From an uncultured Clostridia bacterium (GTDB lineage: Bacteria > Bacillota > Clostridia > TANB77 > CAG-508), in assembly GCA_944387445.1 (NCBI GenBank), contig CALXEX010000002.1:28290-92289 (forward strand): a stretch of DNA of 64,000 nucleotides. The letters run 5' to 3'. The notes beneath the pieces were generated by a model. That model searched no databases. It had not been told where the DNA came from and worked only from the letters and a program-made list of their open reading frames with translations. The translations under genes and the position numbers were made by a program. Shown here piece by piece: positions 2,359 to 58,182 of the stretch. Positions within the stretch are counted from its first letter, which is position 1. Each line of letters opens with the position of its first letter.

Positions 2359-2742
2359 TTAAATATTTACTCGATATTTTTCAGTTCTTTTTCCTAAATT
2401 AATCGTACTTTTATTTGTAATTTCTATTTTAGGAATTAAATACATTTTTTGCTCTGCATCTAATACAAATATATAATCTACATTTGTATTTACTATTGTT
2501 TTATATTCCTTTCCTTTTGTTCCACCACAACTTTTCAAAGCTACTTGATATACATTATTTCTTGTTTTACAGCCTGTTGCTTTTACTTGTACTGTGTATA
2601 ATTTATTACATTTTTCTATTACCAAATCATAATCTTGTGTATCATTTAAAGGTATGGATACTGTATATCCTTTGGTTGTAAAATATGCTACTGCCATTCC
2701 TAAACCTGAATTTCCTTTTTCTTTATTAGTACCAAAATTCAT
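2359..2742 (-). CDS. Small PD-(D/E)XK endonuclease, I-Ssp6803I-like (PDDEXK_5-type)
   Basis: Pattern KGNSGLGMAVAYFTTKGYTVSIPLNDTQDYDLVI...YTVQVKAT...VDYIFVLD...MYLIP matches the small group-I-intron-associated PD-(D/E)XK nuclease family. Preferred start is the ATG at 2742 (AAGGAG 5 nt upstream), not the TTG at 2757 used by the track. Confidence 0.6.
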   Translation of the reverse strand: MNFGTNKEKGNSGLGMAVAYFTTKGYTVSIPLNDTQDYDLVIEKCNKLYTVQVKATGCKTRNNVYQVALKSCGGTKGKEYKTIVNTNVDYIFVLDAEQKMYLIPKIEITNKSTINLGKRTEKYRVNI

Positions 2743-2778
2743 AGCTTCTCCTTTCAAAACATTTGTTTGTTAATTTAT

Positions 2779-2808
2779 GTAAAATAAAATACAAGTTTCC
2801 TTGTATTT
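2779..2808 (-). terminator. Intrinsic terminator after tRNA-Tyr
   Basis: Minus strand reads AAATACAAGGAAACTTGTATTT followed by TATTTT. Confidence 0.5.
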
Positions 2809-2810
2809 CA

Positions 2811-3124
2811 TGGTGGGCAGGGAAGGATTCGAACCTTCGTACTCAAATGAGAACAGATTTCTTACTACTATAGTTTTCACTACCATAATCAAAATATCAT
2901 GTTTGTAGTCTGGACTTTCTCTTTATCTTTTTCAAGATACCAGGTATAAAGTCTCTACACTCGGAAATTTCTTTCCTAGCTCGGGATTGTCATCAGCCTA
3001 ACTGTTAAGAGTTCCCCGAATTAGCCCGGTGTTCATCATATAATCACTTATATGAGCTGCAAGTTTAGGTTTTGATTAACCAAAGACCACAGTCTGCCGC
3101 CTTTAGCCACTCGGCCACCTACCC
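2811..3124 (-). tRNA. tRNA-Tyr(GTA) interrupted by a 228-nt intron (exon 1 3089-3124, exon 2 2811-2860)
   Basis: The reverse complement reads GGGTAGGTGGCCGAGTGGCTAAAGGCGGCAGACTGT, then the insert, then AAATCTGTTCTCATTTGAGTACGAAGGTTCGAATCCTTCCCTGCCCACCA. This gives a 7-bp acceptor stem, a D arm, an anticodon stem GCAGA/TCTGT, the loop CTGTAAA, a long variable arm, a T arm GAAGG/CCTTC and an encoded CCA. It is co-linear with Bacillus tRNA-Tyr. Confidence 0.85.
2861..3088 (-). ncRNA. Group I intron (IC3-like, ORF-less) in the tRNA-Tyr anticodon loop
   Basis: The 5' exon ends in U and the insert ends in G. The strings GAGTGTAGAGACT and ATAAAGAGAAAGTCCAGACTAC parallel, from memory, GGUGUAGAGACUAGACGG (Azoarcus tRNA-Ile intron) and UAAAGAGAGAGUCC (Anabaena tRNA-Leu intron). 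AAACCTAA and TATGG receptor-like strings are also present. Confidence 0.75.
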
Positions 3125-3139
3125 ATATATTTATTTTAA

Positions 3140-3216
3140 TGGTGCTCCCTCAAGGATTCGAACCTTGGACCCACCGGTTATGAGCCGGTTGCTCTGACCA
3201 ACTGAGCTAAGGGAGC
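3140..3216 (-). tRNA. tRNA with CAT anticodon (elongator Met or lysidine-modified Ile2)
   Basis: The reverse complement reads GCTCCCTTAGCTCAGTTGGTCAGAGCAACCGGCTCATAACCGGTGGGTCCAAGGTTCGAATCCTTGAGGGAGCACCA, a full cloverleaf. The G1-C72 pair argues against an initiator tRNA. Confidence 0.85.
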
Positions 3217-3248: not shown

Positions 3249-3277
3249 AGTATAAACTATTTTTATGTAGTTGTCAA
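3249..3277 (-). promoter_or_regulatory. Sigma-A-type promoter for the tRNA pair
   Basis: Minus strand reads TTGACA, a 17-nt spacer, then TATACT, about 30 nt upstream of the first tRNA. Confidence 0.6.
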
Positions 3278-57964: not shown

Positions 57965-58182
57965 ATTTTGAAGTTACTTTTGGGATTTTTTTGATATTAA
58001 AATTTATGATAAAATTTAGACTAAAATATATAAATTAAATTATGTATATTAAATCACAAAAATGTAAAAAATACAAGTATTTTCTGTTTTTTCGTATGAT
58101 AAATATAATTTTCCAAACATTCGTTTGACTTTTTCTTTCAAATGTTATATAATATTTAAAAATAAACGAGGAAGTGATATTT

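Follow-up and report, generated by a model that had tools for sequence, protein, structure and literature searches.

A free-standing I-Ssp6803I-family endonuclease gene with an SOS-box-like element beside an intron-bearing tRNA-Tyr gene in uncultured gut Clostridia

On the minus strand of a 64,000-nucleotide (nt) stretch of contig CALXEX010000002.1 (assembly GCA_944387445.1, positions 28,290 to 92,289), which comes from an uncultured Clostridia bacterium and is called the window throughout, a tRNA-Tyr(GTA) gene is interrupted by a group I intron and followed by a free-standing gene for a PD-(D/E)XK endonuclease. We give roughly an even chance to the interpretation that this gene encodes an SOS-gated homing endonuclease aimed at the tRNA-Tyr gene and that the intron shields the host copy. 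The product would be a free-standing member of the I-Ssp6803I family with homing-type endonuclease activity, and its DNA target would lie within the tRNA-Tyr gene, most likely in the pseudo-palindromic anticodon stem-loop CAGA-CTGT^AAA-TCTG, which is also the intron site. The single host tRNA-Tyr gene would escape cutting because the 228-nt intron splits the target. Uninterrupted alleles, acquired by horizontal transfer or produced by intron loss, would be cut, after which the intron-bearing allele would serve as the repair template or would be retained at their expense, resulting in collaborative (trans) homing together with intron retention. Expression would be held down by the tRNA terminator and by a LexA operator in front of the ribosome-binding site (RBS), and would be released in the SOS response, when RecA would be induced as well. 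Collaborative homing appears to be the most economical, if unproven, reading of these sequences.

The nuclease gene runs from an ATG at 2742 to a stop codon at 2359 on the minus strand and encodes 127 amino acids (aa). A sequence-only reading of this DNA had assigned the protein to the I-Ssp6803I family, and three approaches (a profile hidden Markov model search, a profile-to-PDB comparison and a fold comparison) agree with that assignment. The protein matches the Pfam family PF11645 (PDDEXK_5) with 60.9 bits (E 1.7e-16; cut-off 26.1) over positions 3-116 of the 138 in the profile. When a profile of 36 homologues was compared with the sequences of the PDB, I-Ssp6803I (PDB 2OST) was the sole significant match (E 8.4e-5). 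The AlphaFold2 model (predicted local distance difference test 81.7, predicted template-modelling (TM) score 0.78) likewise matches only I-Ssp6803I well: the best four Foldseek hits in the PDB were chains A-D of 2OST (TM score 0.69-0.78, E 3e-6 to 1e-5, identity 24-26%), and these were followed by MepB (TM score 0.45) and by the SPARDA nuclease domain and Hjc (0.55 each). Residues D37-Y-D39-L and V-Q52-V-K54 align to the SYDL and VQVK of 2OST, and the YDL and VQVK motifs are invariant in the 36 sequences and at least 93% conserved in 79 sequences. This suggests that a putative catalytic core, consisting of an acidic residue and then Q/E-x-K, is aligned with that of I-Ssp6803I. No NCBIfam model matched the protein, and none of the PADLOC anti-phage defence models did at E <=0.001; a homologue with 73% identity has already been named "group I intron-associated PD-(D/E)XK endonuclease" by NCBI. 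PF11645 is rare elsewhere, with a match in one of 200 genomes sampled evenly from the phylum.

The interrupted tRNA-Tyr(GTA) gene spans 3124-2811 on the minus strand. Its first exon (3089..3124) ends in U(-1), the 228-nt insert (2861..3088) follows position 4 of the anticodon loop and ends in G (omega), and the second exon (2811..2860) carries a long variable arm and an encoded CCA. ARAGORN was run on the precursor, where it reported i(37,228), and on the joined exons, which form a canonical class II tRNA-Tyr of 86 nt. Against the Rfam family Intron_gpI (RF00028) the insert scored 38.5 bits (E 1.1e-8), which is below the gathering score of 50 and was obtained only from a 251-nt search; a scan of the 1.1-kb region at E <=1 missed the intron. 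Its class is Tyr.4Ug, catalogued by Williams 2020 (bioRxiv 10.1101/2020.01.27.920355). The layout proposed from the letters alone was confirmed in two respects. The intron lacks an internal open reading frame (ORF), since the sense strand holds none of at least 40 aa except a 40-aa frame that enters exon 2, and the nuclease starts on the same strand close behind the tRNA 3' end, at a measured distance of 68 nt (2811 to the ATG at 2742) where about 70 nt had been given. The target of I-Ssp6803I is a pseudo-palindromic tRNA anticodon region (PMC3384342), and the anticodon stem-loop of tRNA-Tyr, itself a natural pseudo-palindrome, resembles what this enzyme recognises. In nuclease-free relatives the intron-less genes have the same sequence as the window exons (100% identity); provided that the target is inside the gene, the intron would be the sole possible determinant of immunity.

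The association between intron and nuclease was examined in 61 related genomes of uncultured gut Clostridia (0.8-2.4 Mb, AT-rich). All genomes used here are metagenome-assembled, and the intron-less exceptions and contig-end cases described below may include assembly or binning artefacts. The tRNA-Tyr gene is intron-bearing in 14 of the relatives and uninterrupted, with both exons contiguous, in 31. An intact nuclease gene was found in six of the 14 intron-bearing relatives, which belong to four genera, in each case immediately after tRNA-Tyr, and in none of the 31 intron-less relatives (hypergeometric p ~4e-4, or 1.7e-4 by a looser count, with kinship ignored). In relative G005 a nuclease copy is riddled with stops and displaced from the tRNA. 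We also surveyed 80 species-representative genomes, each with a nuclease homologue at 58-92% identity, and the 16 loci without an upstream tRNA-Tyr were settled by whole-genome search. An intron-bearing tRNA-Tyr lies at the same locus, upstream of the nuclease, in 57 of these genomes and elsewhere in the genome in 11; in three others the gene is cut by the contig end and the 3' part of the intron is visible. Five genomes have an intron-less tRNA-Tyr (directly upstream of the nuclease in four and on another contig in one), and no tRNA-Tyr was found in the remaining four. The intron is present in 71 of the 76 scorable nuclease genomes, as compared with ~30% of the relatives overall. Within the nuclease subfamily this survey of related genomes, which the sequence-only reading had proposed, turned out in its favour. 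Chance adjacency of nuclease and intron was ruled out by the same survey.

The nuclease is under purifying selection, with a median ratio of nonsynonymous to synonymous substitution rates (dN/dS) of 0.125 across 116 pairs, which argues that the gene is maintained and is not decaying. The opposite possibility is that a former homing endonuclease gene, now inactive, is sitting by chance beside the intron that it once mobilised. Pseudogenes or deletions in G005, G030, L062 and L110 are what such decay would produce, and about half of the intron-bearing genomes have no nuclease gene. However, 51 alignment columns are at least 93% conserved across 79 sequences, the RBS and the operator are intact, and the low dN/dS led us to reject this explanation, which we consider extremely improbable.

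Intron and nuclease do not share the same recent history. Their pairwise identities are almost uncorrelated (Spearman 0.18), and the nuclease stop codon marks the exact end of homology between loci. The introns of loci L042 and L066 are 99.1% identical with nucleases that are 67.7% identical, and the window and L042 differ by a synonymous rate (dS) of 0.39 in the nuclease and by ~1% in the intron. More generally, genomes with 40-87% identity in the flanking genes and spacers share introns that are 95-99% identical. Either the intron is constrained at nearly every position or it was exchanged recently among species independently of the nuclease allele, and we favour the second possibility. Frequent copying of the intron and rare copying of the nuclease would be expected from mobilisation in trans, when right-hand homology is limited to exon 2 and the terminator. 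Compared with L042, L044, L053 and L066, the window intron (2861-3088) is 98-99% identical, with a nuclease dS of ~0.4 and spacers at 75-82%; this is much more conservation than ribozyme loops would normally need, which points to recent transfer among species. Additional group I introns, whose identity to the tRNA-Tyr intron core is 68-78%, occur at other loci in the relatives (G015:C2:29137-29308, G026:C5:1616-1784, G002:C103:479-683, G034:C4:65744-65942 and ~10 others), and none was seen to have a homologue of the tRNA-Tyr-linked nuclease next to it.

A palindromic motif, [C][G/A]AAC-N4-[G/A]TT[C/T], precedes the nuclease in 52 of 79 homologous loci (between -50 and -8, and 8-20 nt upstream of the RBS) versus 1% of shuffled sequences. 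The window copy, CAAACAAATGTTTT, is located at 2769-2756 on the minus strand, just upstream of the RBS AAAGGAG (2748..2754), which was read directly from the sequence and is kept in homologous loci. We built a position weight matrix (PWM) from the nuclease-upstream sites, such that the recovery of SOS genes constitutes the independent evidence. Scanning the 1.8-Mb genome with this matrix yielded 23 sites above 13 bits, and the window site was tied for the top with 18.4 bits. Other top sites precede recA (18.0 bits), a 101-aa LysM membrane protein that resembles the SOS division inhibitor YneA (16.6 and 17.7 bits), a radical-SAM/HhH DNA-repair protein (16.0 bits) and the Y-family (IMS) polymerase dinB (15.7 bits); further ones precede a YgjP/SprT-like peptidase, two Bro-N (DinD-like) proteins and a KilA-N protein. 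The genome also encodes lexA. Because the same matrix recovers core SOS genes, the box can be regarded as the predicted LexA operator of this organism, and an AT-rich box of the Cheo type is a candidate for defining the SOS regulon of this uncultured lineage. The strict Cheo box GAAC-N4-GTTC occurs at two sites in the genome (12 expected), none of them at SOS genes. The relaxed form [AG]AAC-N4-[AG]TT[CT] appears from the matrix scan to be the operator form in use. Candidate sites of the regulon in this genome are C5:57305, C6:64454, C4:40151, C18:33579/33611, C7:5005, C4:65129 and C3:68446, together with window positions 58114-58127 (C2:86403), so that one Bro-N/DinD-like member lies inside the window.

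The box, which the sequence-only reading had missed, is of immediate relevance to whether tRNA and nuclease are transcribed together. The tRNA-Tyr gene shares an operon on the minus strand with tRNA-Met(CAT) (3140..3216; ARAGORN, and 73.3 bits with the Rfam tRNA model), and a sigma-70-type promoter, TTGACA-17-TATACT, lies in front of the two (3249..3277); it agrees with the consensus at 11 of 12 positions and ranks first in the region. Directly after the CCA end, a hairpin of 12 bp, two of them G-C pairs, folds with a centroid energy of -11.9 kcal/mol (z -3.4) and is followed by a U-run, which together form a weak element resembling an intrinsic terminator (2778..2811, minus strand). The sequence-only reading had correctly placed a terminator-like hairpin between tRNA and nuclease, but its coordinates of 2779-2808 need correction, as the hairpin was found at about 2784-2811. 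A terminator scan did not call it because it contains just two G-C pairs. The same hairpin follows tRNA-Tyr in nuclease-free relatives and is therefore part of the tRNA operon. The nuclease may be transcribed by read-through from the tRNA promoter, with the weak terminator and LexA acting as the gates.

Terminator and box also follow tRNA-Tyr in some nuclease-free genomes, in which other genes come next, for example a DinD-like one; the box is therefore a feature of the slot and not of the nuclease alone. Hairpin and SOS box are kept in G033 (L036:1550-1625) and G011 (L039:1550-1620), and in G033 a glycosyltransferase gene comes directly after them. A locus of the G033 type could be an empty or vacated nuclease site. 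The slot also opens the possibility, which we judge rather unlikely, that the nuclease is a domesticated host gene: an SOS-induced PD-(D/E)XK enzyme for repair or recombination (Hjc-like) or for defence, without any tie to intron mobility, that happens to occupy a variable SOS and defence slot downstream of tRNA-Tyr. A top-scoring box comparable to the ones at recA and dinB, purifying selection that is strong over dS >1, the DinD/Bro-N-like genes or Gabija that fill the slot in other genomes, and the weaker fold hits to Hjc and the SPARDA nuclease domain would all be in line with such a function. Nevertheless, a host function fits poorly with a gene that is present in just ~10% of the relatives and ~0.5% of the wider phylum sample and is nearly confined to intron-bearing genomes. 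Its best fold match is, by a wide margin, a homing endonuclease and not a resolvase; its relatives are selfish-looking genes of phage tRNA arrays, and PADLOC gave no match.

The tRNA-Tyr 3' flank is itself variable. In several of the 11 genomes with the intron elsewhere, the intron-bearing tRNA-Tyr is on the same contig and islands of 2-10 kb lie between it and the unit of terminator, box and nuclease. At L091:13-1708 (GTDB representative CAOKMF010000017), Gabija lies between the tRNA-Tyr locus and this unit (GajA C-terminal part, E 3e-65; GajB, E 3.5e-88), and at L045, L107 and L117 the flank contains Bro-N/DinD-like genes and other cargo, from which we infer that the tRNA-Tyr 3' flank is a hotspot for islands and defence genes. 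Upstream of displaced nuclease copies, and adjoining the usual terminator hairpin on its 5' side, are conserved non-coding elements of ~75-150 nt that end in ...GGCACCA or ...CCTGCCCACCA (L045:1850-1927, L107, L051, L073, L076, L098; L091, L101, L117; L043, L050, L070). A comparison of these CACCA-ending elements with Rfam returned no match; we take them as candidate ends of islands that entered the tRNA 3' end, and small RNAs with a CCA terminus are the alternative.

Relatives of the nuclease are also found in phages. A tblastn search identified homologues with 32-46% identity in 46 phage records, and all eight that were examined sit in tRNA arrays, where four adjoin an intron-less tRNA-Tyr(GTA). 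In Acinetobacter phage CP14 (L155:992-1466), Escherichia phage UPEC06 (L157:968-1433) and Klebsiella phage K54_rec4 (L158:995-1432), the ORF ends 0-1 nt before an intron-less class II tRNA-Tyr(GTA); the tRNAs are wholly unannotated in two of these three records. In Vibrio phage Chester the homologue overlaps an annotated tRNA-Tyr, and the four remaining homologues adjoin tRNA-Ser (two phages), tRNA-Leu and tRNA-Lys. Genome G019 contains a distant homologue within a phage-like region, lying 24 nt upstream of a tRNA. The idea that the nuclease does not commonly occur apart from intron-bearing tRNA genes consequently holds for the Clostridial subfamily but fails in part for the wider clade, owing to these phage relatives. 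Because the latter adjoin intron-less tRNA genes, association with tRNA genes comes first in the clade, and association with the intron is limited to these Clostridia. Judging from gene positions, its members appear to have settled beside tRNA genes, in many cases tRNA-Tyr, as has phage T4 SegB, a GIY-YIG free-standing homing endonuclease of tRNA gene clusters that has no intron. SegB is named in PMC13096335. Taken together, the phage and Clostridial branches suggest a nuclease clade specialised on tRNA-Tyr genes.

The parallel with SegB leads to a different account of the window locus, in which the nuclease homes without the intron. Its site would be at or near its own insertion point, in the tRNA-Tyr 3' flank, at the junction of terminator and box or at the tRNA boundary, and would be disrupted by the nuclease gene; the intron would be a linked passenger that is sometimes co-converted. 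The free-standing phage homologues of intron-free tRNA arrays, with their ORF ends 0-1 nt from the tRNA, are arranged as this account would have it. So is the exact end of locus homology at the nuclease stop codon, and the unit of terminator, box and nuclease stays whole when islands insert upstream; nuclease-bearing genomes without the intron also exist. Still, homing of this type needs no intron, and yet nearly all scorable nuclease genomes carry one, far above the share among relatives overall. An association due to linkage only should have been eroded by the decoupled histories of intron and nuclease. Furthermore, no empty-site allele matching the window flanks was found, with the downstream 240-aa gene syntenic in no relative, and the nuclease is downstream of the tRNA here whereas the phage copies adjoin the tRNA 5' end. 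We therefore view intron-independent homing as possible but unlikely. Another variant, in our opinion distinctly improbable, keeps the intron as the shield and treats intron and nuclease as an SOS-gated device that serves addiction and distinguishes self from non-self, which would enforce intron retention and provide a defence targeting tRNA genes. Inactivation of LexA, caused for example by incoming single-stranded DNA or phage attack, would then lead to the cutting of any uninterrupted tRNA-Tyr gene in the cell, whether it belongs to a phage tRNA array or is an intron-less allele that entered by recombination.

Several observations weigh against collaborative homing as the explanation of the window locus. 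Eight of the 14 intron-bearing relatives lack the nuclease, with unrelated genes following their tRNA terminator, which indicates that the intron does not need it. Intron and nuclease are just ~120-320 bp apart, and linkage together with shared descent could therefore yield much of their association. Phage homologues coexist with an adjacent intron-less tRNA-Tyr, so that members of the clade may spare such a gene or may target its flank or junction. Two genomes with neither nuclease nor intron (G033 and G011) nonetheless have the terminator and the box after tRNA-Tyr, and no sigma-70-like promoter was recognisable between terminator and SOS box in the window. Lastly, the five surveyed genomes with an intron-less tRNA-Tyr combine it with a full-length or near-full-length nuclease; two of them, L054 and L090, have retained the putative target as it is and show few protein changes, and the dN/dS of L054 versus L075 (0.155) is not clearly relaxed.

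These five exceptions are independent tips in the nuclease tree, and L056 and L090 are on long branches. Deviations at the 51 columns conserved at >=93% number 3, 3, 2 and 0 in the four exceptions whose nuclease adjoins the tRNA, compared with a mean of 0.61 in 59 intron-associated sequences (Mann-Whitney p 0.017). The nuclease of L054 carries G10R, that of L056 carries T35I and P104Q and a C-terminal truncation, and that of L090 carries G15A, A17S and T56S. L057 presents no protein deviation; its tRNA-Tyr anticodon stem has a compensatory change from C-G to T-A beside the insertion site. Among the relatives, G030 has an intron-less tRNA-Tyr and a nuclease that is missing residues 42-88, which comprise the putative catalytic core. 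Although the sample is small, the pattern among the exceptions is what would be seen if the nuclease could not coexist with an intron-less target that is intact.

The window locus combines features of several known systems. Like I-Ssp6803I, its nuclease belongs to PF11645, has the same fold with aligned YDL and VQVK motifs, is tied to a group I intron in a tRNA anticodon loop and is of similar size (127 aa versus about 150 aa). In contrast, I-Ssp6803I is encoded inside its own intron, in the tRNA-fMet gene of the cyanobacterium Synechocystis, whereas the window gene is free-standing, 68 nt past a tRNA-Tyr of gut Clostridia and behind a terminator and an SOS box. Collaborative homing as described for phages (PMC3984707) likewise pairs an ORF-less intron with an adjacent free-standing nuclease gene, with patchy distribution and co-occurrence, and there too the intron is the sole sequence difference between protected and unprotected alleles. 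The phage cases concern protein-coding genes and HNH or GIY-YIG enzymes, while the window case concerns a bacterial chromosome, a tRNA gene, a PD-(D/E)XK enzyme and apparent LexA control; the convergence of cleavage site and intron site that characterises the phage systems would have to be assumed for the window nuclease. The likeness to SegB is in the free-standing gene in or next to tRNA genes, a position that the phage homologues hold exactly, and the difference is that SegB has a GIY-YIG domain and no intron, unlike the PD-(D/E)XK enzyme and accompanying intron of the window.

In the literature consulted, collaborative homing is described for no more than a handful of phage gene pairs, and a single PD-(D/E)XK homing endonuclease has been characterised, one that is intron-encoded and cyanobacterial. 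The window locus may therefore be the first case on a bacterial chromosome of a nuclease and an intron that aid each other's spread or persistence. The stages of such a partnership (intron alone, intron with nuclease, decayed nuclease, and neither) exist side by side in nature and recur across dozens of species genomes, always in a single-copy essential tRNA gene, which makes the origin and upkeep of intron-endonuclease partnerships directly testable in cellular genomes. These enzymes are small, may recognise long sites and could interest enzyme engineers. LexA control, if true, would tie the expression of a homing nuclease to DNA damage or DNA entry.

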